64,000 nucleotides of DNA from an uncultured Alphaproteobacteria bacterium (GTDB lineage: Bacteria; Pseudomonadota; Alphaproteobacteria; CAAHEQ01; UBA3637): NCBI GenBank assembly GCA_944392555.1, contig CALXWZ010000001.1:65810-129809 (forward strand). The letters run 5' to 3'. This document shows positions 4,003 through 41,509 of the stretch, in pieces. How positions within the stretch are numbered: the first letter of the stretch is position 1; each line of letters opens with the position of its first letter. The notes under the pieces are model-generated. The model had not been told where the DNA came from, did not search any database, and saw nothing but the letters and a program-made list of their open reading frames with translations. The position numbers and the translations under genes were made by a program.

Positions 4003-4776
4003 ATGAAATTAAATCAACAAATGCTCGCATTAAGCTGTATGGCAAGTATGATTCCGCTGATGACGGGATGTGAAAAAGAGGAACAAACGTCGTCTGTCAA
4101 AGAAGCCGTATCATATCGTGTGCCGGTAGATAGTCAAGGCAATTTTGATAAAGAGCAGGCTGAAAAAAATATTAAACAGATTGATTTTGATAAGAATATT
4201 AAACTATTTCAAAAGCTAACTGATGAAACATCCAAAGCAGGAAGAATGACGGATGATGTTTGGAATCATTTTGCGGGAGCTTATGTATATCATAATGTCG
4301 GTTCTGAACAATGGATACAAGAAGCAAAACCACTTGTTCGTGCAGTGATAGAGAATCCGAATGCGTGCAACATGATTCAAGATAACCGCACGGATGAAGC
4401 GAAAGAGATAAAAGCAGATGTATTAAGCTTGTTGGTTTGCGTTTTAATGGTTGCCAGTAGTTGTGTAGCAGTTAAATTTGCTTGTAAAGATAAAGATTTT
4501 GGAGACATTGCCAAATTTTATGGTGTTTGGCCTATGGTTTTAGGAGGGGTTTGGATTGGCAGTAGTTTGGGTGCGAATCAAGGAAAAGAGACGGTTCAAC
4601 AAGCGGCTATGAATATTCAGAAAGCCGCATATCAACAGACATTACAACAAGTAAAGCAAATAGTTGCTCAACAGGGTAATATGGTTCAGCCTGCACCAAT
4701 TAAAATACAAGGAGCGGAGAATCAGCAAGTCAAGCAAACAATTCCGCAATATCTGCAAGAGAATCAACGCGCGTAA
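4003..4776 (+). CDS. Lipoprotein, paralogue 2 (tandem duplicate)
   Basis: About 70% identity to the 3103-3795 product over the N-terminal 140 aa. Gln-rich C-terminus. Confidence 0.7.
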   Translation: MKLNQQMLALSCMASMIPLMTGCEKEEQTSSVKEAVSYRVPVDSQGNFDKEQAEKNIKQIDFDKNIKLFQKLTDETSKAGRMTDDVWNHFAGAYVYHNVGSEQWIQEAKPLVRAVIENPNACNMIQDNRTDEAKEIKADVLSLLVCVLMVASSCVAVKFACKDKDFGDIAKFYGVWPMVLGGVWIGSSLGANQGKETVQQAAMNIQKAAYQQTLQQVKQIVAQQGNMVQPAPIKIQGAENQQVKQTIPQYLQENQRA

Positions 4777-4983
4777 TACTTTTACTCAGTGCATGATGGT
4801 GAGAGAGTAATAGATACTAAAACTTGCTATTAAAAAGCTATTAAAAATCGGACGCCTTATTCGGGCGTTCGTTTTTTTATCTCCCTCGCGGATACCTTAA
4901 AGAAAAAAATTGGGTGAAAAATAAAGAAATCGGACTCCTTATCAAAAGAAGCCCGATTTTTATTTTTTGATTATGCTTATATA

Positions 4984-7644
4984 CTAGGCTTTTTTTGCCT
5001 TGCTTGATTTGGATGATTTTTTCTCTTCCTCTTCATAGACCGGTTTGCCGTAGTAGGCAGCCAAGTATAAGTCTTTAATCTCACTGATGAGCGGATATCT
5101 GGCGTTGCAGACGGTGCATTGATCGTCAAACGCTTTTTCCGACAAGGCATCTAATGAAGCCAAGAATGCCGTTTCATCTACATTTACGTCTTTTATGGAC
5201 ATCGGAATGTTAACGGCTTTCTTTAAGTCTTGAATGGCATCAACCAAACGATGGACTTTTTCATCAACCTGATCGGCATTTAATCCGTCCGTTAAGCCCA
5301 TCATATCGGCAAAACGCGCATACCGTTGTTTCACAAACGGATAACGATATTGCGGGAATGTGCCTTGTTTTGTCGGCGCATCCGTTGCGTTGTATTTAAC
5401 AACATACGGCAATAACAACGCGTTTGCCAACCCGTGAGCCACGTGGAATTCGCCGCCGAGTTTGTGCGCCATGGAGTGGCATAATCCCAAGAAAGCGTTT
5501 GCAAATGCCTGTCCGGCTAAAGTGGCCGCATAGTGCATTTTTTCGCGGGCTTTCGGATCGTTTGCACCGTTTTGGTAAGACCGCGGTAAGTATTTGAAGA
5601 CTAAACGCGCTGCTTCAAGGGCTTGTCCGTCCGAGAGGTTGTTGGCCATAACGGAAGTATAAGCTTCCAAAGCGTGCGTCAAAACGTCCACACCCGAAAA
5701 CGCCGTTAATCCTTTCGGCATACTCATGGCCAAATCAGGGTCAACAATCGCCATATTCGGCAAAATAGAATAGTCGGTAATCGGATATTTTTGATTTGTC
5801 TTATCGTCCGTAATAACGGTAAACGGCGTTACTTCCGAGCCCGTTCCAGATGTTGTCGGAATAGCTACCATTTTGGCTTTTTGACCTAAATGCGGGAAGT
5901 CAACAATCCGTTTGCGAATATCCATAAACCGCATGGCAATATCTTCAAACGCCAAATCGGGTTGTTCATACATAAGCCAAACGATTTTAGCCGCGTCCAT
6001 CGGCGAACCACCGCCGAGCGAAACAAATACATCCGGTTCAAACCGTTTCACTTGCTCCAAAATTAAGCCGATTGTTGTTAAATCAGGATCCGGTTTTACG
6101 GCATCAAAAACTTGATACGTCATGCTGTTCTTTTCCAAAATTTTGCCGATACGGTCCGTTACGCCGATTTGCGTCATCGTTCTGTCCGTAACGATAAAGG
6201 CGCGTTTATGTCCTTGTAATTCAGCCAAGGCAAAATCCAAACAGCCTCGTTTGAAGTAAATTTTTTCGGGCGTTTTAAACCACAACATATTTTCGCGACG
6301 TTCCGCAACAGATTTGATGTTTAACAAGTGTTTGACTCCTATATTTTCGCTGACGGCATTGCCACCCCATGACCCGCATCCGAGTGTGAGCGACGGTGCC
6401 AGTTTAAAGTTATATAAATCTCCGATAGCGCCTTGTGAAGACGGCATATTGATAAGTGTCCGCCCCGTTGTGAGGGTTTTACGGAATAAATCAATCCGAT
6501 CTTTATTGGATTCTGCCGTATATAAAACAGAGGTGTGTCCCGCACCGCCTAAAACAATGAGTTTTTGGGCTTCATCAACGGCTTGTTCAAATGTGTCGGC
6601 TTTGAAATATCCCAAAATCGGGGAGAGTTTTTCATGCGCAAACGGGTTGGAATCGTCAATCGTATGCGATTCAACCAACAACACTTTCGTTGTAAACGGC
6701 ACTTCAATGCCTGCCATTTGAGCAATTTTATAAGCCGGTTGACCCACAATCGCCGAGTTCAGTTTTCCGTTGATAAAAATAAGGTCTTTTAATTTTTGCG
6801 TTTCGGCTTTGTTTAAAAAGACACATCCGCGTTTGATAAATTCTTCTTTAACGGCATCATAAACGGAAGCAAGCACCACAACAGATTGTTCGGAAGCGCA
6901 AATCATCCCGTTATCAAATGTTTTACTCATAATAACACTGCTGACAGCCATCTTTAAATCGGCTGTTTCATCAATTACGACGGGTGTATTCCCCGCGCCG
7001 ACGCCGATGGCGGGTGTGCCTGAACTATACGCCGCTTTTACCATGCCCGGACCACCTGTTGCCAAAATTAAAGAAATATCTTTATGCCCCATCAAATAAC
7101 CCGTAACGGCCGGTGTAATTTCATCTAATCCCGCAATAATATCTTCCGGTGCGCCCGCTTTAACGGCTGCTTCCAATACAACGCGTGCTGCCGTATTTGT
7201 GCATTGAATGGCACGCGGGTGCGGTGCAAAAATAATGCCGTTGCGTGTTTTTAGCGCTATCAAGGCTTTGAAAATGGCTGTTGAGGTTGGGTTTGTTGTC
7301 GGCACAATACCGGCAATCACGCCGACGGGTTCCGCAATTTGCGTAAATCCTTGTTCTTTATCTTCGAAAATAACGCCACACGTTTTAGTATTTTTATAAG
7401 CATTATAGATATATTCGGCAGCAAAGTGGTTTTTAATGACTTTATCTTCCACAATCCCCATACCCGTTTCTTTAACGGCCAACTGCGCCAACGGAATCCG
7501 TTGCGATGAGGCAGCCAAAGCGGCGGCTTTAAAAATTTTATCTACTTGTTCTTGCGAAAAGCGAGCGTATGCTTCCTGTGCCTTTTTGACGCGTGCAACA
7601 AGGGCATCAACCGTTTGCTTTTGTTCTTCGGTAATTTCAGCCAT
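4984..7644 (-). CDS. adhE: Bifunctional acetaldehyde-CoA / alcohol dehydrogenase
   Basis: 886 aa with an N-terminal aldehyde dehydrogenase domain and a C-terminal iron-dependent alcohol dehydrogenase domain. Confidence 0.9.
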   Translation of the reverse strand: MAEITEEQKQTVDALVARVKKAQEAYARFSQEQVDKIFKAAALAASSQRIPLAQLAVKETGMGIVEDKVIKNHFAAEYIYNAYKNTKTCGVIFEDKEQGFTQIAEPVGVIAGIVPTTNPTSTAIFKALIALKTRNGIIFAPHPRAIQCTNTAARVVLEAAVKAGAPEDIIAGLDEITPAVTGYLMGHKDISLILATGGPGMVKAAYSSGTPAIGVGAGNTPVVIDETADLKMAVSSVIMSKTFDNGMICASEQSVVVLASVYDAVKEEFIKRGCVFLNKAETQKLKDLIFINGKLNSAIVGQPAYKIAQMAGIEVPFTTKVLLVESHTIDDSNPFAHEKLSPILGYFKADTFEQAVDEAQKLIVLGGAGHTSVLYTAESNKDRIDLFRKTLTTGRTLINMPSSQGAIGDLYNFKLAPSLTLGCGSWGGNAVSENIGVKHLLNIKSVAERRENMLWFKTPEKIYFKRGCLDFALAELQGHKRAFIVTDRTMTQIGVTDRIGKILEKNSMTYQVFDAVKPDPDLTTIGLILEQVKRFEPDVFVSLGGGSPMDAAKIVWLMYEQPDLAFEDIAMRFMDIRKRIVDFPHLGQKAKMVAIPTTSGTGSEVTPFTVITDDKTNQKYPITDYSILPNMAIVDPDLAMSMPKGLTAFSGVDVLTHALEAYTSVMANNLSDGQALEAARLVFKYLPRSYQNGANDPKAREKMHYAATLAGQAFANAFLGLCHSMAHKLGGEFHVAHGLANALLLPYVVKYNATDAPTKQGTFPQYRYPFVKQRYARFADMMGLTDGLNADQVDEKVHRLVDAIQDLKKAVNIPMSIKDVNVDETAFLASLDALSEKAFDDQCTVCNARYPLISEIKDLYLAAYYGKPVYEEEEKKSSKSSKAKKA

Positions 7645-7803
7645 AAGTCCTCCATAATAAGTTGTTAATAATAGAATTTTTTTGCGGTCAGGAATTATTA
7701 TATATATTTCCCGAAAATAAGCAAGATTTTTTGCGATATTGACAATGCTTTTTTGAAAACAATCTCATTTTATTATAAAAATATGAACTTTTTGTGACAA
7801 TAA

Positions 7804-7833
7804 AAAAGAAGCCTTGTTTTAAAAGGCTTCTTT
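7804..7833 (-). terminator. Terminator downstream of grpE
   Basis: Hairpin AAGAAGCC..GGCTTCTT followed by a T-run on the minus strand. Confidence 0.5.
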
Positions 7834-7919
7834 TGTGTTTGAAGCAAATACCTGTTGTATGTTTCTGGTTAAGGATGATTGGGCTAAATTACTTTCCGCC
7901 CCTCCTTATCAATGCTTTT

Positions 7920-8585
7920 TTATTTGCTCACAATAACCATGGCTTCGCGTAATACTCTATCACCGCCGATGGTATAACCTGTTTGAAGTTCTTGGAGAAC
8001 TGTGCCCGGTTCTTTATCGGCATCTTCCACTTCTTGTATTACTTTATGATAATTGGGATCAAAAACCAAACCGACGGTATCCATTTTTTTAATTTGGTGA
8101 TGCTCAAAAACGGTTTGAAGTTGTTTTTGCGTCATTTCAACACCTTTGAGCAAATTAACTAAAAACGGTTCACAGGCTTTTCCCTCATTGTGTTCCTTTT
8201 CAATTTCTTTTTGTGCGCAATCAATGGCGCCTGCCAAATAGTCGGCAACGGGCAATAAATCTTTGGCAAAAGAGGCGTTGGCATACCGATGAGCCTTTTC
8301 AATATCAATTTGCGTGCGTTTGCGTAAATTTTCCATCTCGGCTTGCGAGCGCATGGCCACATCTTTCCACCGAGCAACTTCCGCTTCCAACTCCGCAGAA
8401 TCTTGTGGGCTTGCTTGTGCCGACAAGGTATCTTGTTGCGTTTCATTTTCGCTACCGTTTGTTGCGGTTTCATCTGTTAATTCTTCGTTTATCGAATCTG
8501 CCATAATGTTATCGCTTTGTTCTACTGCATGTTGTAATTTTTCATTTAAATCCATTGGCTTTTTGTTATGATGTTTATGACTCAT
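7920..8585 (-). CDS. grpE: Nucleotide exchange factor GrpE
   Basis: 221 aa. The C-terminal region (..IQEVEDADKEPGTVLQELQTGYTIGGDRVLREAMVIVSK) is typical of GrpE. Confidence 0.85.
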   Translation of the reverse strand: MSHKHHNKKPMDLNEKLQHAVEQSDNIMADSINEELTDETATNGSENETQQDTLSAQASPQDSAELEAEVARWKDVAMRSQAEMENLRKRTQIDIEKAHRYANASFAKDLLPVADYLAGAIDCAQKEIEKEHNEGKACEPFLVNLLKGVEMTQKQLQTVFEHHQIKKMDTVGLVFDPNYHKVIQEVEDADKEPGTVLQELQTGYTIGGDRVLREAMVIVSK

Positions 8586-8794
8586 TTCTTTTTCCTCACA
8601 TTTTTAATACCAGCATTCAGAATATGTTTATATGTAGAATGATTTGAGGCGAAAATCAAGAGGCAAAACGGAAATTTTAACGGATTTCGGAATTGTTATT
8701 CTATTTTTCTGCCGAATGTTTGGATAAAAAATACTTGCAATTAAATGAAAAAAAAGATACAATACAACATTCTTAAAGTTTAAGGAGTTATAAA

Positions 8795-9511
8795 ATGGCA
8801 AGACCGTCAGGAAGATCGGCTGATGAACTCAGACCCGTGAAAATGGAAATCAATGTGAATAAATACGCCGAAGGCTCATGTTTGATAACATGCGGTGATA
8901 CGAAAGTGATGTGCACGGCAACCGTTGAAGAAAAGGTGCCGACGTGGCTTAAAAATTCCGGACAGGGTTGGGTTACGGCGGAATACGGTATGTTGCCAAG
9001 GGCAACGGGAACGCGAACCGATCGCGAATCAAAAAAGGGTCAAAGCGGACGGACGCAGGAAATTCAGCGCCTTATCGGGCGGGCATTGCGCGCCGGTATT
9101 CGGTTGCAGGCGATTGACGGGTTTTGTATTAAAATTGATTGCGATGTGATTCAAGCCGACGGCGGAACACGTACGGCCTCCGTTACGGGCGGTTTTGTGG
9201 CCTTATATTTGGCCTGCCGTAAATTGGTGGCACAAGGCAAATTAAAAGAAATGCCGATTACGCAAATGATTGCAGCCGTTTCGTGCGGTGTTTACGGCGG
9301 TATTCCCGTTTTGGATTTAGACTATATTGAAGATTCAAATGCCGGCACGGATTCCAATTTTGTGATGACGGATAAAGAAACATTAATTGAAATTCAAGGA
9401 ACGGCAGAACACGGCGCATTTACGCCGGCGGAATTTCAACAGTTGATAATGTTGGCGCAAAAAGGAATCCGCGAGTTGATTCAAAAGCAAAAAGAAGTAT
9501 TGTCCCTTTAA
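8795..9511 (+). CDS. rph: Ribonuclease PH
   Basis: 238 aa. Start [15 protein letters not shown] and motif GSCL are as in Rph. Confidence 0.9.
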
Positions 9512-9545
9512 ATAAATAACGCTGAAATGAAACAAAGAGGAAAAA

Positions 9546-10157
9546 ATGCAAAAAGTGATTGTATTGGCAACCCATAATCCCCATAAATTGCAAGAGGCGC
9601 GTGCGATTTTATCGCCCATCGGATTTGAAGTGTTAGGCGGGAATGATTGCCATTTGCCGGATGTGGAAGAAACGGGGCTTACGTTTGAAGATAATGCCAA
9701 ATTAAAAGCCGTTGCCGGCTTTAAAGCGCTGGGGAAACCCGTTATGGCAGATGATTCGGGTATTTGTATTGAGGCGCTGGACGGTATGCCGGGTGTTTGT
9801 TCGGCGCGGTATGCAACGAAAAACGGCGGTTATCCGGCCGTCTTTGATGTGCTTAACAAAGAATTGGGGGATAATCCGAACCGAAATGCACACTATACCT
9901 GCGTGATTGCCTTGGCAGTCAGTGAAACGGAAGTTTATACGTTTACGGGGAATATGTATGGCACGTTGGCGCATTTTCCGTCGGGTACGGGTGGATTCGG
10001 GTATGACCCGATTTTTATTCCGGAGGGAATGGAAACAACGCTCGGGCATATCCCCGCAGAAATCAAGAATAAAATTTCGCACCGCAGTAAGGCGTTGAAA
10101 CAAGTTTATGATTTTTTAAAGACGCACGGAGAAAATATATTCGGAGAGAATCAATGA
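9546..10157 (+). CDS. rdgB: Non-canonical purine NTP pyrophosphatase (Ham1/RdgB)
   Basis: 203 aa. Ham1-family motifs VLATHNPHKLQE, ADDSG and FGYDPIF. rph-rdgB synteny. Confidence 0.85.
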   Translation: MQKVIVLATHNPHKLQEARAILSPIGFEVLGGNDCHLPDVEETGLTFEDNAKLKAVAGFKALGKPVMADDSGICIEALDGMPGVCSARYATKNGGYPAVFDVLNKELGDNPNRNAHYTCVIALAVSETEVYTFTGNMYGTLAHFPSGTGGFGYDPIFIPEGMETTLGHIPAEIKNKISHRSKALKQVYDFLKTHGENIFGENQ

Positions 10158-24433: not shown

Positions 24434-25918
24434 GTGAGTGCGCAAGAGTCTTTAAGTATTATCTTAAACCAACCGGGTTTCCCGCGAGCGAGGCCATTAT
24501 CAAGTGATTCAAAAGCGGGGATAACGGAAGAACGAGCGACGGAGCTGATTAACTATCAGCGGAATCTTGAGGAATTGCGAAACACGCTGAGTCAAGTAGA
24601 TTCACTGTTAGCCGAGCCACCGACGCCGGAGATAGCGGCAAAATGTGCCTCATTACTGGGATATGTAGCAGCGATAGATTTACCGCAAGAAGTCAAGAAT
24701 CAGGAAGCGGGACGATATCCGCCACAAGTGCAAGAGCAAGTGCATAGAGCGTTGGAAACGCAAGGGACGAGCACAACACGTTCAGCGGAAGCGGCGACAT
24801 ACGGGACGGCGATAATGCAACGAGTAGCGGAGGAAGCGCAAGTTCGGATACAATTAGAAGCGAAAGCGGCGTATGAGGAGAGTCGCAAGGTATACGAGCA
24901 ACAGATGCAAGCGATTGAGAATGAAATTGGTAGACTTGATGCAGAATTTTTGTCTTCCCCTTATTCCCCTGAAAGAGCAGCAGAGTACTTGCATCGCAAA
25001 CAGGTATGGCTTGATGAAAGAAGGAAACATGCTGATAAATATTGCTCAGATACTGTTTCAAATTATCCTAGTCTGTCACCGGAAGACAAGGCTAAGGTTA
25101 GAGAGGATTTGAAAGAACAAGAGAGACAAATAGAAAAGCATATAAAAGAAAAAGAAGATTATTTGAGATATTTGAATGAGCTAATGGCAAGGACGACGGA
25201 TCCTGAAGAATGTCGAAAAATTCAGTTAGCTATAAATACAACTCACGCAGATATGCAAGGATTACAAGAGATTATAGGCGGCTTTCAACGAACGCAAGCC
25301 AGGTTGGATCTGATAGACAAGCTGGTTAATGTTGGTCAACAAGAGGCGATGGATGACATTAAGAATAACATTAATGATGATAGTAGAATAATGCCAGATA
25401 AAGGCATTTCTGAAAAAGGAGTAAGAAATCCATCTCAACAACGTACACCTTTAGCGAAACAAGAGAATGATGAGAATGTTAATAGGGCGGTGTGCTCCCA
25501 ATATGCGAGTGAACATGTGAGTGGAGGTGATAGTGAAGAAATAAAGAGTGAGGATTCTGTTGAAATGGCTAAAACTTCTACGCATGTAAGCAATGGATTT
25601 GATGTATTAAATTTCTTTGATTCTAGAGAGCAAAGTAGTGTAGGAGGGTTGAGAGAAGAAGATCATTCTCAAAGCGTGCTAATGACAAGTCATAACGCTG
25701 AAGAAAGCAGTGTAATAGAACCCATACTTCAGCGTTCACCTATTATCCCCCAAGTGGATGAAGTTGTGGAAGGCACACCAGAAAAAAATGGAGTTGATAG
25801 TAATACAAGTGGTACCTTGAAGAATACGCTGGCTGGGAACTCTGTTTCAAATGATGATGATCAAGGAAAATTAATAATGCAGTATGTATTGCAAGAAAAA
25901 TCTATGTTGAATGGATAA
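24434..25918 (+). CDS. Hypothetical coiled-coil protein without a signal peptide (candidate secreted effector)
   Basis: GTG start with a GGAGG ribosome-binding site. 494 aa, long heptad-like E/Q/R-rich helices. The 3' half is AT-rich. Confidence 0.5.
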   Translation: MSAQESLSIILNQPGFPRARPLSSDSKAGITEERATELINYQRNLEELRNTLSQVDSLLAEPPTPEIAAKCASLLGYVAAIDLPQEVKNQEAGRYPPQVQEQVHRALETQGTSTTRSAEAATYGTAIMQRVAEEAQVRIQLEAKAAYEESRKVYEQQMQAIENEIGRLDAEFLSSPYSPERAAEYLHRKQVWLDERRKHADKYCSDTVSNYPSLSPEDKAKVREDLKEQERQIEKHIKEKEDYLRYLNELMARTTDPEECRKIQLAINTTHADMQGLQEIIGGFQRTQARLDLIDKLVNVGQQEAMDDIKNNINDDSRIMPDKGISEKGVRNPSQQRTPLAKQENDENVNRAVCSQYASEHVSGGDSEEIKSEDSVEMAKTSTHVSNGFDVLNFFDSREQSSVGGLREEDHSQSVLMTSHNAEESSVIEPILQRSPIIPQVDEVVEGTPEKNGVDSNTSGTLKNTLAGNSVSNDDDQGKLIMQYVLQEKSMLNG

Positions 25919-25949
25919 ATAAATTCAAGTTCAAAAGGAGAAAATAAAA

Positions 25950-27086
25950 ATGGCAAATAGAAAGAGTGCGGATGTTTCAAAAGTGTTGATGCCCGATGAG
26001 GTTAGTAAAATTTTTCACCGCACAGATGTCCTGTATAACTCACTGGTGAATGTGGAACGGAAAGCATGTGCGAGTACATTATATAATATGATTTCTGATT
26101 ATTATAAAGATTTTAAAGAATTATATGAACATGGATATCGAGATAGTATTTTTGGTATGCGCGATGAGAAGAAGGCACAAAAAGCACTTAATGATATGAA
26201 AAAAATGGATAAAAGTTTTGTTGAGAAGCTTTGTGCAACAGAGGAGGGATATTGTGTTCTCGCTGAGATAGAGCGATTTGGTGTGAAAGTTGATTGGAAT
26301 AGTGTGCCATTGACAGCAATTACAACAAAAAAGTGTATCAATTTTTTGGCAAAAAAAGGATATGATTTTGATGCAATGCGTTCTGTTAACGGTGTTGAAA
26401 TAGATTTTACGGGATATAATTTAGCCAATCTTTATATGGCGGAAAAAAACACGATAAAATCATATGATGACTTACTGGCTCAGAAAAAGGAATATGATAA
26501 ATATGAGGATAGTCTAAGAAAATATGCTATGGAATACAAGTCTCCAAAAACATCCCCTGAACGCAAAGAAGAAATTATGGGATATTTCAACTCCATTGTT
26601 CCGGAATTTAATAAAAAACAAAAAGAAATGCGAACAGGCTGTGATCGGGTTATGCGCCAAATGATCGGTTACTACGTTCATGCTGGATGCTTAGAAGCTG
26701 TTGCTGTGGACCATCAATATGTATCTCCTGAAAACATTAAGCGTATAGACCCGAAAAACTTATCATTGGGGATAGAGTATATGAATGGTCGATTGAATGC
26801 AGTTAAGCAAATCAGAGAAAAATTTAGTGCGACAGAACGGACGAGTACGAATGTTTCTTCTGATGATGGTTTAGCATTAATTGGTAGTTTGATACAGGGG
26901 AATGGTGTTTCAAGTTTATTAGCCAGTGCGGAAAGCCATGAGGCTGTCTACGCGAAAGAAGCAGAATCCGAGAAGTCGGGTATGAGCATGACGGAGCGAT
27001 TGGCGCAACAAACCCAAGGCTCAACGCTTGAAAGTGCCGAAAATGCAATGGCGTTTGTCGGTAAAGATTCACAAACAAATGCTTAA
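25950..27086 (+). CDS. Hypothetical protein, paralogue A (candidate effector)
   Basis: 378 aa. Paralogous to the 27287-28408 product. Shares its last ~56 aa nearly identically. Confidence 0.6.
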   Translation: MANRKSADVSKVLMPDEVSKIFHRTDVLYNSLVNVERKACASTLYNMISDYYKDFKELYEHGYRDSIFGMRDEKKAQKALNDMKKMDKSFVEKLCATEEGYCVLAEIERFGVKVDWNSVPLTAITTKKCINFLAKKGYDFDAMRSVNGVEIDFTGYNLANLYMAEKNTIKSYDDLLAQKKEYDKYEDSLRKYAMEYKSPKTSPERKEEIMGYFNSIVPEFNKKQKEMRTGCDRVMRQMIGYYVHAGCLEAVAVDHQYVSPENIKRIDPKNLSLGIEYMNGRLNAVKQIREKFSATERTSTNVSSDDGLALIGSLIQGNGVSSLLASAESHEAVYAKEAESEKSGMSMTERLAQQTQGSTLESAENAMAFVGKDSQTNA

Positions 27087-27286
27087 TCCGCAAGGATTAA
27101 GCATTTTCTATCTTTAAGAAATGAAAAGCAACATGGGGAGAGATAATTACAAACATTTTTATCCGCTTGAAACAGACTTAGAGAGAATTTAAGCCTGAGT
27201 TCAAGTCTATATATTGCGGGTTTATCGGTTAATCGATCCATGGGATAATTTTAAAAATTTTTAATTAAGTATAGGAGAAAATAAAG

Positions 27287-28408
27287 ATGCCAAAAGTTCG
27301 TGAAGCAATAGATGTTTTAGATGTAAGCCCGGTTTATGGTGTTTCAACCGATATGATGAATTCGTGCGCAGATGAGGTGAAAAGTCCATCTAATGCGACC
27401 AGATTGTTGAATTATATTGGGGCATATTGTGAAAAGTTTAACAAGTGTTACAGGCTTGAATACTTAAAATATATGTATCAAACACCGAATCGTAAGAAAG
27501 AAAACGAGTCCTTGGAAAAAATGAAACAAATGGATAAGGAAGTGATTGAACAGCTTATGTCGGTTGATGAGGGATATAAACCTCTTGCTGTTGCTGAAAA
27601 AAACGGGGCGAAAATCGATTGGAATAAAGTTCCGTTGACAGCCATTCTTTCACCGGGCTATATCGACTTTTTGGTAAAAAAAGGTTATGATTTTGATGCA
27701 AAGCGCACTGTGAATGGTGTGAAGACAGATTTTACATCATTTAATCTGACGTTGATGAGTGTGTTTGAAAATCAGACTTATGAAAGATATGAGGACGTTG
27801 TTAAAGCAATTGAAGAGCATAATAGGATAGTTAGAAGTGGAAAGCCTTTGCTTCAAGAATATCGCTCGCCTGAAACAACCGAGAAAAGAAAACAAGAGAT
27901 TTTGAAAGAAATGGATAAGTCGCAAAAAGCATTTGATGCTGTTTTGCAATCAATGCCGGCAAAATGTGATGCGGTCAACGAGTCAATGAATAGATATTAT
28001 ATCCATGCGGCTTTATTGGAGCATGCTATTATCACAAATCAATATGTATCGCCCGAGAATATCAAAAAGGTCAATCCGGATAAACTTTTAGAAAGTATCG
28101 GAGGGATGAATTACCGTCGAGAGAAAATGGAAAAGATAAACAAGGCGTTTAATTCAAAGCGAACGAGTAAAACAGACGAAAAAGAACAAGGATCGTTGAT
28201 GACGGCAAGTGTTTATGGTTCAGAGGGTGTATTCGGAACATTAGCCAGTGCGGAAAGTCATGAGGCTGTTTACGCAAAAGAAGCAGAAGCCGAGAAGTCG
28301 GGTATGAGTATGACGGAGCGATTGGCGCAACAAACCCAAGGCTCAACGCTTGAAAGTGCTGAAAATGCAATGGCCTTTGTCGGTAAAGATTCGCAAACAA
28401 ATGCTTAA
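27287..28408 (+). CDS. Hypothetical protein, paralogue B (candidate effector)
   Basis: 373 aa. Conserved blocks KVDWNSVPLTAI, KKGYDFDA, QYVSPENIK, and the identical C-terminal tail. Confidence 0.6.
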   Translation: MPKVREAIDVLDVSPVYGVSTDMMNSCADEVKSPSNATRLLNYIGAYCEKFNKCYRLEYLKYMYQTPNRKKENESLEKMKQMDKEVIEQLMSVDEGYKPLAVAEKNGAKIDWNKVPLTAILSPGYIDFLVKKGYDFDAKRTVNGVKTDFTSFNLTLMSVFENQTYERYEDVVKAIEEHNRIVRSGKPLLQEYRSPETTEKRKQEILKEMDKSQKAFDAVLQSMPAKCDAVNESMNRYYIHAALLEHAIITNQYVSPENIKKVNPDKLLESIGGMNYRREKMEKINKAFNSKRTSKTDEKEQGSLMTASVYGSEGVFGTLASAESHEAVYAKEAEAEKSGMSMTERLAQQTQGSTLESAENAMAFVGKDSQTNA

Positions 28409-28933
28409 TCCCACCTTTTAATGATAATCCCTTTGGTGACACGACTTGCCAAAGGGATTTTTTTAATAATGTTTCCTTTTTTACGCATTTTTCTTTTTGC
28501 CTCCATTTTGACGACCTGTTTTGATAACTTTAAATAACTTTTGGATATTTTTTTTCTAAAAAATCAGCTTAAATTCTGAAAATATAAGTAATTATGAGTG
28601 CTTCTTTTTGCTCGGTTAGTGTCCGTTTTATAAAATAAGAAAAATTTATCAGAAAAATCATATAAATAGGTGGCCAAACTATTAATGCTTCCGATTCGTG
28701 AATTTTTTTATTTCTTTTTGTTTAAAATATTAACAAATAGTATACTCTGCGGGGGTATATTAGCTTTTTTGAAATTGAAGTGATTGCTAAAATAATGATA
28801 GATGACTTTTTTTGATAAAATAAGTGAAAAATAAGTGTTTTTTTTGAAAAAAATAATAAAAAGGCATTGCAAAACAAAATAAACTGCTTTATATTGAAAC
28901 CTGGGTTTCGTGAATTCTATAAGGAGTCTATAA

Positions 28934-29206
28934 ATGAAAAATCAAATTAATGAAGATAATATTCGGGTTGCCGCTTATTATATTTGGGAGCAAGCGGGTC
29001 GTCCGGAAGGTCAAGAAAAGGAATGTTGGATAAAGGCTTGCGAACAATTGTTTGCTGCCGGAGCCGAAAATAATTCAAAATGTTGCAAAAGCAGCTGTAA
29101 ATCAAATACGGCTACCAAGTCAACAAAAGCGAAAAGTGCAAATGCTACTTCCTCCAAAACAGCAAAAGCATCTTCGGCTCAAAAAACAAAAAAATCTTTG
29201 GCATAA
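28934..29206 (+). CDS. DUF2934-family small protein
   Basis: RVAAYYIWEQAGRPEGQEKECWIKAC matches the DUF2934 signature (AYxxWExxGRPxG..W). Ala/Lys/Ser-rich tail. Confidence 0.55.
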   Translation: MKNQINEDNIRVAAYYIWEQAGRPEGQEKECWIKACEQLFAAGAENNSKCCKSSCKSNTATKSTKAKSANATSSKTAKASSAQKTKKSLA

Positions 29207-29234
29207 TCCAAAGGGGGAGGCGTTCTTTGAACGT

Positions 29235-29263
29235 AAAGCGGGGCTTTAGCTCCGCTTTTTTTT
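29235..29263 (+). terminator. Rho-independent terminator
   Basis: AAGCGGGGCTTTAGCTCCGCTT followed by T8. Confidence 0.6.
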
Positions 29264-29288
29264 GACAAAACTGCATTTATAAAAATTA

Positions 29289-29317
29289 TTGACATATATT
29301 TATTTATCAGTTATACT
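29289..29317 (+). promoter_or_regulatory. Sigma70-like promoter TTGACA-17-TATACT
   Basis: Consensus -35 with a good -10, about 35 nt upstream of the 29353 start. Confidence 0.5.
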
Positions 29318-29352
29318 CAATTATATTTTTAGATAAAAAGGAGTAGGCTGAT

Positions 29353-30750
29353 ATGATATACCCACCATGTAGTAGTGTATTTTATGAATTGAATCAATCT
29401 GTTGATAAAATTGACGCCAAAAAGAAAGAACAAATTAATCCAAGATTAACGGATGAAGAAATTCAAGCAATTTATGATTCTTTTGAAATATGCGAACCCG
29501 ATTATATGATTGAGTGCCAAACATCTTTCAAAGAAGAAAAACGGAAACAAATGCGTTTTGCGGAGGTGATTCAAAAAGCATTGGTGTATGCTAATCGGTT
29601 GCCGACAGCAAGGTTGTGGTTACGTCGTATCCCGCGGGGTATACAAGTAGGCATTTTAAAAGATGACGAAGGATTAGGGGGACGATCTGCGGGTAATAAA
29701 ATTGATATTAGTAAAGAAAAACTGAGCGAAACAATAGAAATGATTGCTCTTACCATGAGTCATGAACTGGCTCATACCATTGATCGGCATGAGTTTGCAG
29801 GATTATCCGTTTTTCCATATCAGCCTGTAAATGAAGGAGATGTTTTTCCGGCACTATGGGATTCTTCTTTAACGCAACAAGAGTTGATGCAATTTGTTCT
29901 CATTGACGAAGCCGAGAAAGCCGCACTAACGAAACAGTTGGCTTTTGAGGCAGGGTTGTATGAGTATTCCAGTACGCATACGGCACACATGAAACAGCAA
30001 TATCCGAAATTTGAAAAACTGTTTTCAACTTGGCAACCCGTATCGGCGCCCGAACAGTGGACGGATCAGGAAATTGAAAGAGAGCGTTTAACACGGGCAT
30101 TCTTCTATGCTTCTGTGGCGTCGATGAGCACAAGTATGAAAGAATTTTTAAGACCATACGGAAGTCTTGTTAAGCAAATGCCGGAACCTGTCAGAAAACA
30201 GCTAAGCAAAGAGAATATAAGCCGTTCACTTAATATGCGAAAAATTCGTTCCATGCATTTACCGCTCAATGTTCTTGCAAAAACATTTGAAACAATGGAT
30301 AAGGCTTTTGTGAATGTGATGTATCGCAGTTTTGCGTGTAATTTTTTGTGCAGACAGCTTTTACACAAGTATTGTGAACAAAATAATTTCCCTGTTGAGG
30401 AAGTTTTAAGTGATGATCGGTTTTTTGAGAAAAATTTTCTAACCTATTTAGGTGTGAAACAAGCGGAAGAGTCTAACGAACCCTCTCAATTTTTTGAGGA
30501 ATACATCAAGCGGGTGGAATTCCGATATATGGGATTAATCGGCCGAAAAGATTTATTACCCAAAAACAGCAGGATAAATTCGTATGTTTATCAAGATAGG
30601 GAAACACCGAGAAAGTCTTTATTAGATATCAAACAAACACATCAAAAAATTGCCAGAATCAAAAAAGTGATTGAGCGAAACACAAATAAAATCGGGACAT
30701 ATTTTGCTCAGCGCGTTGAGCAAGAAATGCAACAACGGAGCAAAGTGTAA
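29353..30750 (+). CDS. Putative zinc metalloprotease-like protein (HExxH), no signal peptide
   Basis: 465 aa. MSHELAHTIDRHE contains HExxH. Confidence 0.5.
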   Translation: MIYPPCSSVFYELNQSVDKIDAKKKEQINPRLTDEEIQAIYDSFEICEPDYMIECQTSFKEEKRKQMRFAEVIQKALVYANRLPTARLWLRRIPRGIQVGILKDDEGLGGRSAGNKIDISKEKLSETIEMIALTMSHELAHTIDRHEFAGLSVFPYQPVNEGDVFPALWDSSLTQQELMQFVLIDEAEKAALTKQLAFEAGLYEYSSTHTAHMKQQYPKFEKLFSTWQPVSAPEQWTDQEIERERLTRAFFYASVASMSTSMKEFLRPYGSLVKQMPEPVRKQLSKENISRSLNMRKIRSMHLPLNVLAKTFETMDKAFVNVMYRSFACNFLCRQLLHKYCEQNNFPVEEVLSDDRFFEKNFLTYLGVKQAEESNEPSQFFEEYIKRVEFRYMGLIGRKDLLPKNSRINSYVYQDRETPRKSLLDIKQTHQKIARIKKVIERNTNKIGTYFAQRVEQEMQQRSKV

Positions 30751-35048: not shown

Positions 35049-36161
35049 GTGTTTGTAATGGAGAGAAGAATGACAACAGAAACAAAAAAAATCGGTATTT
35101 TAACGAGTGGCGGAGATTGCTCGGGCTTAAACGCGGCGATTCGCGGTGTTGTGTTTGCGGCGATTGCAAAAGGCTGGGAAGTGATTGGCATTTATAATTC
35201 AACCGATGGATTATTTTCGCGTCCGATGAAATATAAAAAGCTCACGATTTCGGAATTTGATTATCCGTATGCCTCACTGGGAGGCACAATGCTCGGCACG
35301 AACAATTCGGGCAATCCGCACATTCAGGAAAAGGCCGACGGCACAACCGAAAATTTAACGGATGAAGAATTGGATGAGCGCTTTCAATCCGGCATTAAGG
35401 AATTGGGAATCAGCGCATTGGTTGTTGTGGGCGGAGATGGCTCAATGGCAATCATCAGTAAATTCTGCAAGCGGGCAGGCATTTCCATGATTGGTATTCC
35501 GAAAACGATTGATAACGATGCGCCGGGCACGGATATTGCCATCGGATTCCAAACGGCAGTCAATGTTGTTATGGATTCATTAGATAAATTAACCACAACG
35601 GCCACGTCGCACAATCGGGTGATGATTGCGGAAGTTATGGGCAGAGGCGCAGGGCATTTGGCATTATCGGCAGGCATTGCGGGATATGCGGATGTGATTT
35701 TAATCCCCGAGATTGATTACACGTATGAGGGTGTTGTAAAGAAATTACAAGAGATAAAGGCGCAAGGAAAGAAATACGGCTTGATCGTGATTTCGGAAGG
35801 AATTAAGTCGCCCGAGGGGAAACACCATTTTGCAACGAATGGCAAAACATTCGGCGGTGTATCGGCTATTTTTGCCGAGAAGTTGCAAAAAGATGGATAC
35901 AATGTGCGCGCCACGGTATTGGGCCACGTGCAACGGGCAGGCAATCCGGTATCGGATGATCGGATTTTAGCCTCTGAATTTGCGGTGCGGGCTGTTGATT
36001 TGATTGAGAAAGGCGAAACGAATCGCGTGGTGATTCATAAAGACGGCGAAGTGAAAGATGAAGCATTGAATACGATTTTAAAAATTGCGAATACGCCGGT
36101 TGATCCGAAAGGAAAATTGGTATATACGGCGCGTCAACTGGGCATTTATGTGGGCGAATAA
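35049..36161 (+). CDS. pfk: 6-phosphofructokinase
   Basis: GILTSGGDCSGLNAAIRG ... VVGGDGSM ... PKTIDND. Confidence 0.85.
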   Translation: MFVMERRMTTETKKIGILTSGGDCSGLNAAIRGVVFAAIAKGWEVIGIYNSTDGLFSRPMKYKKLTISEFDYPYASLGGTMLGTNNSGNPHIQEKADGTTENLTDEELDERFQSGIKELGISALVVVGGDGSMAIISKFCKRAGISMIGIPKTIDNDAPGTDIAIGFQTAVNVVMDSLDKLTTTATSHNRVMIAEVMGRGAGHLALSAGIAGYADVILIPEIDYTYEGVVKKLQEIKAQGKKYGLIVISEGIKSPEGKHHFATNGKTFGGVSAIFAEKLQKDGYNVRATVLGHVQRAGNPVSDDRILASEFAVRAVDLIEKGETNRVVIHKDGEVKDEALNTILKIANTPVDPKGKLVYTARQLGIYVGE

Positions 36162-36854: not shown

Positions 36855-37328
36855 ATGAAAAGAACAAATGAATCAGGCCGTTCAATGGTTGAAATGCTCG
36901 GCGTTTTGGCTATTATCGGTGTTTTATCGGTTGGTGGTATTGCCGGTTACACAATGGCAATGAACCGCTATCGTTCAAACGAAATTATTGATATGGCAAA
37001 CAAATTGGCCGTTGTTGCTTTCTCGGCTCGTGAAACATACGCTGCAATGCACAATGGTGATTCCAATGGCTTTACACCGCCTTCGTTGACTACATCTGGC
37101 TTGTATACAAGTGATAAAATCAATGGTGCAACGTTTACGGCATTAACAAATCCGGCATCTTTCTTTACGGATACAGAATGCACAGACGTAGCAGATACAA
37201 CTGAATCTGCACGGAGTGTTAAAATGGAAATCAATTTTGATACAGAAAATGTCTGCAAAGCCGCTGCTTCAACATTGGGCACAACATGTGCAAGCAACAA
37301 AGTTACATTCTGCTCACGCAGCAGCTGA
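36855..37328 (+). CDS. Type IV pilin-like protein 1 (non-canonical prepilin leader)
   Basis: MKRTNESG|RSMVEMLGVLAIIGVLSVGGIAGY has Glu at +5 and a hydrophobic helix. C-terminal Cys pair CKAA..FCSR. Confidence 0.65.
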   Translation: MKRTNESGRSMVEMLGVLAIIGVLSVGGIAGYTMAMNRYRSNEIIDMANKLAVVAFSARETYAAMHNGDSNGFTPPSLTTSGLYTSDKINGATFTALTNPASFFTDTECTDVADTTESARSVKMEINFDTENVCKAAASTLGTTCASNKVTFCSRSS

Positions 37329-37980: not shown

Positions 37981-38145
37981 TTGCAAACTTAAAAATTATT
38001 TAATAGAATAATAAGTATGAAGTGATGAAAAAGGCACTTCATCCGAAAGAATAACGATGCGAAATAAACATCAAAACGGGAGTTGACTCATTCGGGGAAT
38101 GGGAAGACGGGGCTTTCGGGAAACGAAAAAGAAAAGGAGAGAAAC
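37981..38145 (+). promoter_or_regulatory. Promoter TTGCAA-17-TAGAAT plus conserved structured 5' leader, for pilin-like gene 2
   Basis: Second copy of the 36690-36854 block. Hairpin ATGAAGTG..CACTTCAT. Confidence 0.55.
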
Positions 38146-38622
38146 ATGAAAAGAACAAATGAATCAGGCCGTTCAATGGTTGAAATGCTCGGCGTTTTAG
38201 CGATTATCGGTGTTTTATCGGTTGGTGGTATTGCGGGTTACACAATGGCAATGAACCGCTATCGTTCCAACGAAATTATTGATATGGCAAACAAATTGGC
38301 CGTTGTTGCTTTCTCGGCGCGTGAAACATATATGGCAATGCACAACGGTGATACTATACCAACATCAGATGTGCCGGATTTAGCGTCATCAGGGTTGTAT
38401 ACGAGCAGTGTAATTAATGGAGCAACATTTGAAACTCCTACGTTTTATTCTGATACAACCTGTACGACTCCAATAGTTGCTAGTACCAAAAATCAATCTG
38501 CACGGAGTATTAAAATTGTAATCAATTTTAATGGAAATGACAACGTATGCAAAGCTGCAGCTTCAACACTAGGAGAAGATTGTTCTGGCGGTAAGGTAGA
38601 GTTTTGCTCACGCGCCAGCTAA
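38146..38622 (+). CDS. Type IV pilin-like protein 2
   Basis: Start MKRTNESGRSMVEML at 38146, which is the second Met of track ORF 38083-38622. First 70 aa about 95% identical to gene 1. Variable centre. Cys pair CKAAASTLGEDCSGGKVEFCSRAS. Confidence 0.65.
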   Translation: MKRTNESGRSMVEMLGVLAIIGVLSVGGIAGYTMAMNRYRSNEIIDMANKLAVVAFSARETYMAMHNGDTIPTSDVPDLASSGLYTSSVINGATFETPTFYSDTTCTTPIVASTKNQSARSIKIVINFNGNDNVCKAAASTLGEDCSGGKVEFCSRAS

Positions 38623-38947: not shown

Positions 38948-39412
38948 ATGCAAAAAACAAATGAATCAGGTCGCTCAATGGTGGAAATGCTAGCCGTTTT
39001 GGCGATTATTGCCGTCCTGTCCATTGGCGGAACGCTGGGTTATTTGCTCGGTATGCGTCGCTATCGGGCTGATTTGGTTTTAGATGTTGCTTCAAAATAT
39101 GCTTCAACTGTCTATATGCAGTTTCAATCCTATAAAGCCAAGCATGGTGGCTCAGTTGTCGGGTTCACACCGGTAACGCTTGCCAATTCCGGCGTGAGTA
39201 TTGCGAATATGGATTCAATTAACGGCGTCGGGATTGCCTTAAATACGGCATATAGTGGTGGAAAAGAGTGTGTTGGCGGTATTTGTGAAAATGGGGTAAG
39301 TATCCTAATGTCGTTCCCGCAAGAGCAGTTGGAAATATGCAAAACAATTACGATTATGTTAAGCGTGGATAATACATGCCCCGATTTGGTTCGCTTCTTT
39401 CCGCAAAGTTAG
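38948..39412 (+). CDS. Type IV pilin-like protein 3 (divergent)
   Basis: MQKTNESGRSMVEMLAVLAIIAVLSIGGTLGY. C-terminal Cys-rich region CVGGICENG..CKT..C. Confidence 0.6.
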   Translation: MQKTNESGRSMVEMLAVLAIIAVLSIGGTLGYLLGMRRYRADLVLDVASKYASTVYMQFQSYKAKHGGSVVGFTPVTLANSGVSIANMDSINGVGIALNTAYSGGKECVGGICENGVSILMSFPQEQLEICKTITIMLSVDNTCPDLVRFFPQS

Positions 39413-39784: not shown

Positions 39785-41509
39785 TCATGCGTATGATTTT
39801 GTGGACTTGAATGATGAAGCAATGCAATGTTTTCTCATATAGGAATCGTATTGTTTTTTCTGTTCGGGAAATTTCTTGAAATAGGCCGATAATTCGGCAT
39901 TACTTTGATATTTCCCGCCATACCGCATAAACACCTCGGCATTCCGCGGATTAAACAAAATGGCATACGTGACAGGTGTAATCCCGCTTGCATTGGGCCG
40001 ATTGAGCAAAGCTTGAACGGCTTTTTTATCGGAATACGTGAGTAATTGCTTGACCATTTGATTCATCACGGCTGAATCGTATATATTATCGGCTGCCAGA
40101 TGAAAAACAGTTTCCCCTGCCTGAGTATTGCCGAAACTTCCCGTCAATAGTGTGGGGTTCGCCCCTTGCTTCATTAAATTGGCAACAACGCCTACATGCC
40201 CGTGTTCAACGGCGGCTTCAAGTAATCGCGCTCCCGTTTCTCCTGTACTACGCGCTGTTTTGGTTTTAAAGCCTTGTGTGTTAATTTCACTGCCGAAGTT
40301 GAGCCAACTGCTCATACGTTCCAATTCCGCAGGTGTTTTATTCGGTGTGTAAAGAGCGTCCATCATTGCTTGATAGGCCGTTTTCGGCGACATAACAGGT
40401 GTTTTCCCGCCGGCTTTTACCCCTATGCCCGCCAGTTCCGCAGGTTTCGGTGTTTTGGGCAATGTTAAGCCACGCACGGCCGGAATAGGCGGTGCAACCA
40501 TTTCTTTTCCGCGGGGGCTTATCGGTTGCTCTAACACCACGCCTTCCAACAACTCCTTGATTTGATACATCACCTCAATTTGCGCGGCACTGCGTTGAGG
40601 ATCCGTACATGTACCAAAAAAGTGCAACCTACTTGCTTCGCGCGCTCTTGGAAATCCGGTTGATGTGTCCAGAGGAATAAATTGTTTATTTACTTCCGCA
40701 TCAAACCGCTTTTTTTCGGCAGTTGAAATATGTTCGGGTGACCAGTGTATCCCTTCCGCAATTTTTCCGCCGATGAGCCGTTCATTATTTTCTTTGCGAA
40801 TATAGGGACTCATTATCCGAACAAAATCATTGATCATTTCAGGCGTCGGTTTCTTCTCAGGTGTTGCAAAATACACATTCAACGTATCTATGCGATTTGT
40901 TGTGTGGCAATCTACCGGAGATTTATATTTCGCCCCGTATTTTTCGGCAAACGCATCCATCGCGTCTACCCATTCAGGCGTGCAATTAACATTTGCCGTT
41001 ATCCGAAAAGAGGTTGCTAATTTGCTCATTCTGTTTTGCTGATAAGATTCCGATGTTCTCCATAACCAAGGGTTATCATCGTCACCGGTTGAGGCCTCCA
41101 CTTTCCCCGTGTTCGTTAACATCTTATGATAGAATGAATCTTCTTGTGCAATGCTGGGAAGGGTGGAAAAATGAGCATGTCTTAAGAATTGATAGTAAGA
41201 ATCACTTAAATGTATCAACACGGCATTCGTTAGCGGAAGAGGCGGAAACTCGTCGGCATTTGTCAACGAAAAAACACTCTTTGGCTGAAACTTCATTTCA
41301 ATCGGTGCGGAATTTGTTTTCTCGGATTTCGCCTGTTGCGAAATATGCTTCGTAAGGATTTGCACGATATACGAGGCATAGGCCGATTTTTCGTTCTCCT
41401 CACCCATCTGTCTATGCAATTTTTTCCAAAAGCGAAGATAGTTGGCATCTTCCGCCCTGTGAGAATATGTTTTAAGCCCCAGTTCATTAAACAAATCTAT
41501 TAAGTGCAT
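39785..41509 (-). CDS. Ankyrin-repeat protein without a signal peptide (candidate effector)
   Basis: 574 aa. N-terminal ~130 aa carry ANK-like repeats (GARLLEAAVEHGHVGVVANLMKQGANP ... ETVFHLAA). Large unknown C-terminal domain. Last gene of a 3-gene minus-strand operon. Confidence 0.55.
   Translation of the reverse strand: MHLIDLFNELGLKTYSHRAEDANYLRFWKKLHRQMGEENEKSAYASYIVQILTKHISQQAKSEKTNSAPIEMKFQPKSVFSLTNADEFPPLPLTNAVLIHLSDSYYQFLRHAHFSTLPSIAQEDSFYHKMLTNTGKVEASTGDDDNPWLWRTSESYQQNRMSKLATSFRITANVNCTPEWVDAMDAFAEKYGAKYKSPVDCHTTNRIDTLNVYFATPEKKPTPEMINDFVRIMSPYIRKENNERLIGGKIAEGIHWSPEHISTAEKKRFDAEVNKQFIPLDTSTGFPRAREASRLHFFGTCTDPQRSAAQIEVMYQIKELLEGVVLEQPISPRGKEMVAPPIPAVRGLTLPKTPKPAELAGIGVKAGGKTPVMSPKTAYQAMMDALYTPNKTPAELERMSSWLNFGSEINTQGFKTKTARSTGETGARLLEAAVEHGHVGVVANLMKQGANPTLLTGSFGNTQAGETVFHLAADNIYDSAVMNQMVKQLLTYSDKKAVQALLNRPNASGITPVTYAILFNPRNAEVFMRYGGKYQSNAELSAYFKKFPEQKKQYDSYMRKHCIASSFKSTKSYA

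Follow-up and report, generated by a model that had tools for sequence, protein, structure and literature searches.

A strain-variable locus of two orphan protein families with a concertedly evolving linker in an uncultured alphaproteobacterium

The locus

The subject of this study is a segment of DNA from an uncultured alphaproteobacterium (positions 24434 to 30750 of a 64-kb stretch of contig CALXWZ010000001.1; this whole stretch is referred to as the window, and all coordinates are positions in it) that had been described, from the letters and their open reading frames (ORFs), as an AT-rich block of four candidate secreted effectors. Our analysis points to a different unit, a strain-variable locus built from two orphan protein families, termed A (the 494-aa protein) and B (a family of paralogs, represented here by B1 with 378 aa and B2 with 373 aa), in which divergent B bodies are joined to one constant tail. 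The genes and features of the segment are the following.

24434-25918, plus strand: gene A, GTG start, 494 aa; its homologs begin at the same residue
25950-27086, plus strand: gene B1, 378 aa, cassette type A; body 25950-26915, tail 26916-27086
26913-27290, plus strand: repeated linker, made up of the 57-codon tail, a hairpin with the stop codon, a spacer of ~200 nt, a ribosome-binding site, and the next ATG
27077-27106, plus strand: terminator-like hairpin of 13 pairs, the 5' arm of which spans the last codons and the stop codon of B1
27287-28408, plus strand: gene B2, 373 aa, cassette type B, last copy of the array; body 27287-28237, tail 28238-28408
28426-28459, plus strand: terminator-like hairpin of 14 pairs with a T-run behind it, downstream of the last B copy
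28934-29206, plus strand: gene for a 90-aa DUF2934 protein (Pfam, E 3e-12)
29353-30750, plus strand: gene for a 465-aa HExxH protein

The preliminary description had placed four ORFs with good ribosome-binding sites on the plus strand. The ORF list agrees with these coordinates, and GGAG or AGGAG was found 6 to 10 nt upstream of each gene; however, the segment holds five plus-strand genes, because the 90-aa DUF2934 gene had been overlooked. That each gene has its own promoter and terminator is correct only in part. Terminator-like hairpins follow B1, B2, and, as a third one, the 90-aa gene, but the 32 nt that separate A from B1 contain none, and promoter-like matches in the sequence were not above the level of shuffled sequence (30 versus 23.7 ± 5.4). 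Since B1 starts 32 nt after A and no terminator lies between them, the two genes are probably co-transcribed. The block is AT-rich as described (GC content of 0.34 to 0.39, compared to 0.43 to 0.47 in the flanks and a window average of 0.40), but this does not extend to its conserved segments: the region coding for the N terminus of A (24434-24913) has a GC content of 0.51 and the B tails one of 0.47 to 0.48, compared to 0.36 to 0.38 in the bodies and 0.31 in the spacer. GC-rich conserved segments of this kind fit GC-biased gene conversion.

The proteins had been said to lack signal peptides, and hydropathy analysis, with no dedicated signal-peptide predictor run, indeed found neither a hydrophobic N terminus nor a transmembrane segment (Kyte-Doolittle maximum over 19 aa of 1.31 in the 378-aa B protein and 0.86 in the 373-aa B protein). 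Searches of A and B with Pfam, NCBIfam, PHROG, and PADLOC yielded no match that rose above noise, PDB sequences searched with profiles returned only coiled-coil noise (E of at least 0.03), and neither protein has, by profile and domain searches, a recognizable domain of an enzyme, a nuclease, an NTPase, or a sensor.

Divergent bodies and a near-identical tail in the B proteins

B1 and B2 are 46% identical overall (BLASTP, E 1e-104). Their bodies had been put at 45 to 55% identity; without the tail, however, they share only 35% of their residues and 51% of their DNA. The last 57 aa, on the other hand, differ at one residue, which bears out the description of the last ~56 aa as almost identical, and this likeness is, by sequence comparison, far beyond chance. 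The tail DNA is 94 to 95% identical, close to the ~95% given before for the 3' ~170 nt, but identity is not limited to this stretch: across strains it runs past the stop codon into the ~200-nt spacer.

The AlphaFold2 model of B1 consists of a bundle of long helices (residues 9 to 295; predicted local distance difference test [pLDDT] score of >90) and a small head subdomain, in which the conserved motif of the ~320-aa body (KGYDF[ND]..NG..DF..YNL) and a short β-hairpin (residues 144 to 151) are located. The tail region (residues 318 to 378; pLDDT of 30 to 41) is predicted to be disordered. The bodies are basic (isoelectric point [pI] of 8.1 to 8.3) and contain 4 to 6 cysteines, the tail is acidic (pI of 4.5, net charge of −5 over 57 aa), and the whole B proteins have a pI of 6.0 to 6.3. 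The exact 373-aa protein of the window is not on record.

A two-gene operon for helical proteins without signal peptides, one of which is modeled as a long helical bundle with a small, β-hairpin-containing head (residues 144 to 151), is reminiscent of the binary α-pore-forming toxins of the ClyA/XaxAB kind (YaxAB, PaxAB). However, a Foldseek search with the B model returned nothing at an E value of ≤0.001 and TM-scores of at most 0.28, and its matches to these toxins were no better than those to generic helical bundles. Furthermore, a hydrophobic head or tongue is missing (the hydropathy maximum of 1.31 applies here as well), the hairpin region, which is polar, is better conserved than any other part of the family, and half of A is disordered and of low complexity. 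A relation of A and B to these toxins is, in our view, very improbable.

Two antisense ORFs (89 and 97 aa; 26824-27093 and 28149-28442, minus strand) lie over the two tails and are similar to each other. They were rejected as real genes, since the conserved tail DNA alone explains their similarity.

Strain-specific combinations of old cassette types

In contigs of other strains, the flanks of the locus are, for most strains, 98 to 99% identical to the window (91% in the right flank of contig L001), and the contents from rnhA to the DUF2934 gene differ: the C-terminal two-thirds of A and the B bodies are replaced. The arrays have one to three B copies, drawn from at least five cassette types and arranged as follows.

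Window: cassettes A, B
L005: cassettes A, C, D
L001: cassettes C, B, E
L007: cassettes D, C
L006 and L015 to L018: one B copy each, which is of type D in L006 and L015

Between types, the B bodies are 35 to 48% identical at the protein level and 50 to 60% at the DNA level; within a type, they are 97 to 100% identical, or 80 to 81% if the two sublineages of type D are compared. The types look like old, maintained types and not like rapidly evolving sequences. The ratio of nonsynonymous to synonymous divergence (ω) of the bodies is 0.05 to 0.36; therefore, the cassettes are functional proteins under purifying selection. The ortholog of B2 in L001 shows that body and tail do not share one history: its body is 98% identical (amino acids), and its tail is a different mosaic.

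Gene A has a constant part, too. Its first ~160 codons (24434 to ~24920) are 98 to 99% identical between strains at the DNA level, and the remainder has no blastn match in most strains. Consistent with this, an alignment of 11 A alleles of the window species revealed a near-identical N terminus of ~160 aa, followed by sequence that is 28 to 46% identical or unalignable. The ~330 hypervariable codons encode an acidic, low-complexity, in part repetitive region, and the C-terminal extreme is semi-conserved. The protein as a whole has a pI of 4.8. Tandem repeats are present in the alleles P0034 and P0038, and none were found in the allele of the window.

Concerted evolution of the linker

The linker has a length of 378 nt and is present at every internal array junction in all strains. 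The copy in the window is 91 to 96% identical to the junctions in L001, L003, L005, and L007, whatever cassette types flank it, and one downstream sequence is common to all last B copies, again of any cassette type. The synonymous divergence (dS) between types is 1.8 to 2.3 (saturated) in the bodies and 0.19 to 0.41 in the tails, so that the tail dS is 5 to 10 times below that of the bodies. Within a type, the order is reversed, with a dS of 0.01 to 0.18 in the bodies and of 0.12 to 0.37 in the tails; orthologous copies, in other words, have tails more diverged than their own bodies. The tail has 31 segregating sites among 171, and all four gametes occur in 145 of the 253 informative site pairs. 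Variants within the tail (SHE/NGK, AEAE/AQVE, and ES/EN) are distributed independently of the body type, and the noncoding spacer beside the tail is conserved to the same degree as the tail. Because of the low tail dS, the diverged orthologous tails, the shuffled variants, the four-gamete pairs, and the conserved spacer, the linker can be regarded, at the level of sequence comparison, as shown to evolve in concert through recombination or gene conversion, and gene conversion of the tail, one of two explanations offered in the preliminary description, is borne out.

The second explanation was strong selection, which, as purifying selection on the peptide alone and with no gene conversion, would have to account for the identity of the tails. 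The ω of the tail is indeed low (0.03 to 0.27), and the TLA motif and the architecture of the tail persist in distant lineages. However, selection on the peptide alone is contradicted by synonymous divergence 5 to 10 times lower in the tails than in the bodies and by the equal conservation of a spacer that is not translated, and also by orthologous tails that are more diverged than their bodies and by the failure of the four-gamete test in 145 of 253 pairs. We regard its probability as close to nil.

The fold of the linker RNA (z = −3.0) derives largely from the terminator hairpin, and there is no case for the linker as a structured RNA.

In sum, the comparison of strains indicates that the locus is a tandem family which varies from strain to strain, contains a constant segment under concerted evolution, and is composed of two orphan families.

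A and B as a conserved pair

When 5.8 billion proteins were searched with B1 by a word index, six clusters (373 to 383 aa) were obtained, all of which have the same tail. Among 1.84 billion cluster representatives, searched exhaustively with a profile, there were 20 B proteins. Neither the 5.8 billion sequences nor the 1.84 billion cluster representatives contained the tail on any other protein family. Inside the window, it is restricted to B1 and B2, and among 185,579 species representatives it is encoded in one, the metagenome-assembled genome of the uncultured Alphaproteobacteria bacterium BRZ_DT__bin56. A motif-alignment search of JGI metagenomes for further loci added one contig of 2 kb, and tblastn found no B relatives on plasmids or phages. 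Distant members of the B family share the core motif KGYDF[ND]..NG..DF..Y[NH]L and, ~55 residues before the C terminus, a G-(T)-L-A-x-A-E-N motif in which the Leu (L324) is at least 90% conserved; the tails that follow this motif are polar and rich in Q, N, S, and E, with a sequence that differs between lineages. Hence, carriers of the tail other than B1 and B2 do exist, all of them members of the B family, but the shared C-terminal module that had been proposed is confined to one rare orphan family. Judged by its distribution, the tail is a family-intrinsic C-terminal extension and not a module common to different effectors.

One B homolog, P0029, differs from all others in having an N-terminal Sec-like signal peptide, and it is without the tail; this is suggestive of a single case of signal swapping. 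The gene for P0029 is located on contig L013, directly downstream of a gene for a 2218-aa orphan protein without a Pfam match (3047-9703).

Closer inspection of the distant loci revealed that B does not stand alone. On contig L011, an A-like protein of 458 aa is encoded directly 5' of a B homolog, with a gap of 9 nt, and the N terminus of A is 35% identical to it over 114 aa (E 2e-16). On contig L014, the A homolog P0045 (528 aa) is followed by the B homolog P0017. From this gene order, seen in two divergent lineages, the real unit is a conserved A-B two-gene module. A (14 clusters) and B (~20 cluster representatives) are thus two orphan families that form a gene pair without a relative in Pfam, NCBIfam, or PDB, which makes the pair a reasonable target for structural and secretion studies.

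Neighboring genes and the window

In all strains, the DUF2934 gene follows the array and is not variable, and there is no sign that it is a member of the module. In L001, the DUF2934 gene and the 465-aa gene are separated by two extra genes, one for a 121-aa protein and one for a 555-aa protein (5666-7708 of L001). The 555-aa protein has ABC_tran domains only and is ABC-F-like, not an exporter of a type I secretion system (T1SS).

The HExxH motif reported for the 465-aa protein is real (HELAH at residue 137). H137, E138, and H141 are invariant in nine homologs with 32 to 96% identity, as expected for the HExxH motif of zincins, and the same holds for D144 and E186/E188; the motifs HELAHxIDR and EAEK are invariant, and there is a weak indication of a zincin-like fold. 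Homologs with 33 to 43% identity have ruvA, or Sel1 and peptidase S41 genes, as neighbors in contigs from other alphaproteobacteria. As far as these contexts tell, the 465-aa gene is a separately conserved, zincin-like neighbor outside the variable module. A coherent block of four effector genes is therefore not what is found here, since the 465-aa gene occurs in unrelated contexts elsewhere and the conserved pair is A and B. The 465-aa family is invariant from its first residues on (29353-29385; M-[IL]-Y-P-P-x-x-S-[VI]-F-Y), which is unusual for an N terminus.

The window contains housekeeping genes (SecA, GrpE, Fmt, Def, UvrB, Hpf, PtsN, RnhA, KpsF, and LptB), and Rfam detects three tRNAs only. 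The two ankyrin-repeat proteins that had been listed are to be read differently: the one at 59848-61290 (minus strand) is strong (Ank_2, E 4e-26; 91.8 bits versus a cutoff of 27.3), but the candidate at 39785-41509 (minus strand) is below the Pfam threshold (E 8e-4; 20.3 bits). No literature on gut alphaproteobacteria with ankyrin proteins was found.

Several other parts of the window deserve mention. Three pilin-like tandem paralogs (36855-37328, 38083-38622, and 38948-39412, plus strand) have a prepilin-type N terminus in common (..NESGRSMVEML.VLAIIGVLS..) and diverge after ~60 aa, and only the third one matches Pfam N_methyl, below the threshold (E 3e-3); they are another tandem family of the window with a constant end and a variable rest. 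A pair of lipoprotein-like paralogs (3103-3795 and 4003-4776, plus strand; MKLNQQM..LMTGC) is very similar by eye in the N-terminal ~135 aa, has diverging C termini, and has no Pfam match. An island with a GC content of 0.24 to 0.33 (48907-53226, minus strand), situated beside a tRNA-Pro gene (54124-54200), encodes an AIPR protein (E 8e-35), a DpnII restriction endonuclease (E 3e-95), an N6_N4 methylase, and a D12-class, Dam-like methylase and is probably a horizontally acquired defense island. Genes for a GT2 glycosyltransferase and a Stealth-family protein (CR1/CR2/CR4) between tRNA genes (54446-56533) are candidates for the synthesis of a capsule or surface polysaccharide. A bifunctional AdhE-type aldehyde/alcohol dehydrogenase (4984-7644, minus strand; recognized by eye) and a phosphofructokinase (35049-36161, plus strand; Pfam PFK in syntenic loci) suggest a fermentative lifestyle of this alphaproteobacterium.

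A possible role of the module in export

As shown by the comparison of strains, the A-B module forms a recombining hypervariable locus of this species with a homogenized linker. In our model, it is also a balanced locus, in which cassettes are exchanged, gained, and lost between strains by homologous recombination and gene conversion at the linkers and at the constant 5' region of A, so that very different bodies have a near-identical tail. As to what the tail does, its most likely function, to which we give an even chance, would be to direct the protein, as a signal for docking or export, to a non-Sec pathway or a partner, and the similarly built C-terminal end of A would do the same. A and B would then be exported and face the environment or a host, with their variable parts under diversifying or balancing selection. 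The C-terminal ends of A and B have a loose pattern in common, consisting of clustered acidic residues, a patch of hydrophobic ones, a basic residue, and an end that is small and polar. Further support for a signal comes from the low pLDDT of the tail next to that of the body (30 to 41 versus >90), from the TLA motif, which is kept, and from P0029, with its Sec-like signal and no tail. Hence, export through a C-terminal signal appears plausible.

Several observations weigh against this model. P0029 is a single sequence, and the pattern shared by the C-terminal ends is weak (acidic fraction of 0.2 to 0.3, net charge of −1 to −3). The basic B bodies (pI of 8.1 to 8.3), the 4 to 6 cysteines, and the pI of the whole B proteins (6.0 to 6.3) are untypical of classical T1SS substrates. 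No gene of a type I, III, IV, or VI secretion system was recognized in the 64-kb window, partly by Pfam and partly by reading translations. Because the noncoding spacer is as conserved as the tail, selection at the level of the peptide is not needed to explain the identity of the tails within the species. Finally, the gene-wide ω is <1, and therefore diversifying selection is deduced from the maintained allelic types only.

If A and B are exported, the pathway has to be considered. The B tail had been taken for the Glu-rich translocation signal of Dot/Icm (type IVB) effectors; such a signal would be an E-block, bound by the DotM/DotL coupling complex. The lack of a signal peptide by hydropathy, the predicted disorder and acidity of the tail (net charge of −5 over 57 aa), the clustering of the acidic residues of B-family tails at about −11 to −20, where E-blocks lie, and the one strong ankyrin-repeat protein in the window would all agree with this. 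However, the host belongs to the alphaproteobacteria, and Dot/Icm systems that translocate effectors are known from Legionellales; no dot/icm gene was recognized in the window by Pfam and by reading the translations. A general signal would be present on many effectors, and therefore the restriction of the tail to one family also counts against Dot/Icm. The Glu-rich stretch itself (KEAEAEK) is ~38 to 45 residues away from the end, and of the last 26 aa in the B tail, 3 are acidic, with at most 2 per 10 aa, compared to 10 to 11 in the last 26 aa and 7 to 8 per 10 aa in the validated signals of CegC3, Lpg1663, and OSM (PMC5802825). A Dot/Icm signal is thus a far-fetched reading of the tail; an acidic, disordered C terminus and ankyrin proteins do not make a Dot/Icm effector.

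T1SS are common in alphaproteobacteria, and A and B could be T1SS substrates like TRP and Ank200 of Ehrlichia, with an uncleaved C-terminal signal and with the ABC transporter, the membrane fusion protein (MFP), and TolC encoded elsewhere in the genome. Proteins with no N-terminal signal peptide by hydropathy, with conserved extreme C-terminal ends preceded by disorder, and, in the case of A, with an acidic (pI of 4.8), low-complexity sequence that has tandem repeats in P0034 and P0038 would agree with this reading. In contrast, A and B have neither RTX repeats (GGxGxD) nor a Pfam match, and the share of the residues LDAVTSIF in the last 50 aa (48 to 50%) is that of the whole-protein background (46 to 48%). 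B, with a pI of 6.0 to 6.3 and 4 to 6 cysteines, is not typical of a classical T1SS substrate, and ABC, MFP, and TolC genes are absent beside the module in all loci read. On balance, secretion by a T1SS seems unlikely.

Other C-terminal signals were tried and rejected. The type VII secretion motif YxxxD/E is not matched by VYAKEA of the tail, and the phylum is wrong; C-terminal sorting signals of the sortase, exosortase, and type IX secretion kinds would come with a transmembrane helix or a β domain, neither of which is present; and a cargo peptide for an encapsulin or a bacterial microcompartment does not agree with a motif that is not at the extreme end and with the lack of a shell gene.

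Alternatively, A and B could remain in the cytoplasm as a phage defense or abortive-infection pair, or as another conflict system, with the tail as a regulatory or partner-binding peptide and an arms race with phages as the cause of the hypervariability. A strain-variable locus in a conserved backbone is like a defense hotspot, signal peptides and transmembrane segments are missing by hydropathy, and an acidic tail (pI of 4.5) on a basic body (pI of 8.1 to 8.3) could be autoinhibitory. A also has a faint PADLOC match to ZorG/DUF3348 (E 6.5e-4), which, however, is not backed by a Pfam match to DUF3348. The lack of any enzymatic, nuclease, NTPase, or sensor domain in A and B, the lack of relatives on phages or plasmids, and the Sec-like signal peptide of P0029 argue against a cytoplasmic pair, and long acidic disordered regions are unusual in defense proteins. 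We consider this possibility rather improbable, though well worth keeping in mind.

The export model, in its full form, goes further than a signal function of the tail and is put forward tentatively, as a possibility that we would not yet bet on: A and B may be two exported proteins, new as a pair, that belong to uncultured alphaproteobacteria with a probably host-associated lifestyle; GTLAxAEN followed by acidic, hydrophobic, and basic-polar tails may represent a new class of non-Sec secretion or docking signals; and the locus may be a system dedicated to the shuffling of cassettes, with the homogenized linker as both an export tag and a recombination substrate, so that each strain has its own combination of effector or antigen types that are old and balanced. 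If the inferred role of the tail holds, the uncultured alphaproteobacterium would offer a compact example of a constant recognition tail that is kept while the functional protein body is exchanged, and one DNA linker would at the same time be export or docking tag, terminator, translation start of the next gene, and substrate for exchange.

Comparison with known systems

Dot/Icm effectors of Legionella and Coxiella have in common with the B proteins the lack of a signal peptide (by hydropathy) and a disordered, acidic C terminus with acidic residues ~11 to 20 positions from the end. Unlike in these effectors, the acidic density is lower here, the tail belongs to one family, the host is alphaproteobacterial, and no dot/icm gene is seen in the window. 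The TRP and Ank200 proteins of Ehrlichia are similar in several respects: they are alphaproteobacterial, acidic, disordered, in part tandemly repeated, and strain variable, they have no N-terminal signal but C-terminal information (putative in A and B), and ankyrin proteins are present in the genome. However, the proteins described here show no enrichment of LDAVTSIF and no homology to them, B is a folded, basic helical bundle, and no T1SS genes are nearby.

The X-Tfes of Xanthomonas, which are toxins of a type IV secretion system, combine variable N-terminal parts with a conserved C-terminal recognition region and a Gln-rich end, and this architecture resembles that of the B proteins. Their XVIPCD is a folded domain of ~120 aa on unrelated toxin domains that are paired with immunity genes. 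The 57-aa tail of B, in contrast, is predicted to be disordered, is attached to homologous bodies only, and has no immunity gene adjacent to it. The tail was rejected as an XVIPCD, since it matches no Pfam family at an E value of ≤1, has a length of 57 aa, is predicted to be disordered, and is restricted to one family.

As an analogy only, the arrangement of the locus can be compared to the emm and emm-like (mrp, enn) arrays of Streptococcus pyogenes. The M proteins of S. pyogenes have an N-terminal signal peptide and an LPXTG cell wall anchor and belong to a Gram-positive bacterium; there is no relation in sequence or fold, and the conserved part of the alphaproteobacterial locus is a disordered tail of 57 aa plus a noncoding spacer. 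What the two have in common is the organization: one to three tandem paralogs encoding elongated helical proteins with a conserved C-terminal part and an otherwise highly variable sequence, array patterns that are specific to the strain, and old allelic types that are shuffled by recombination within one species.

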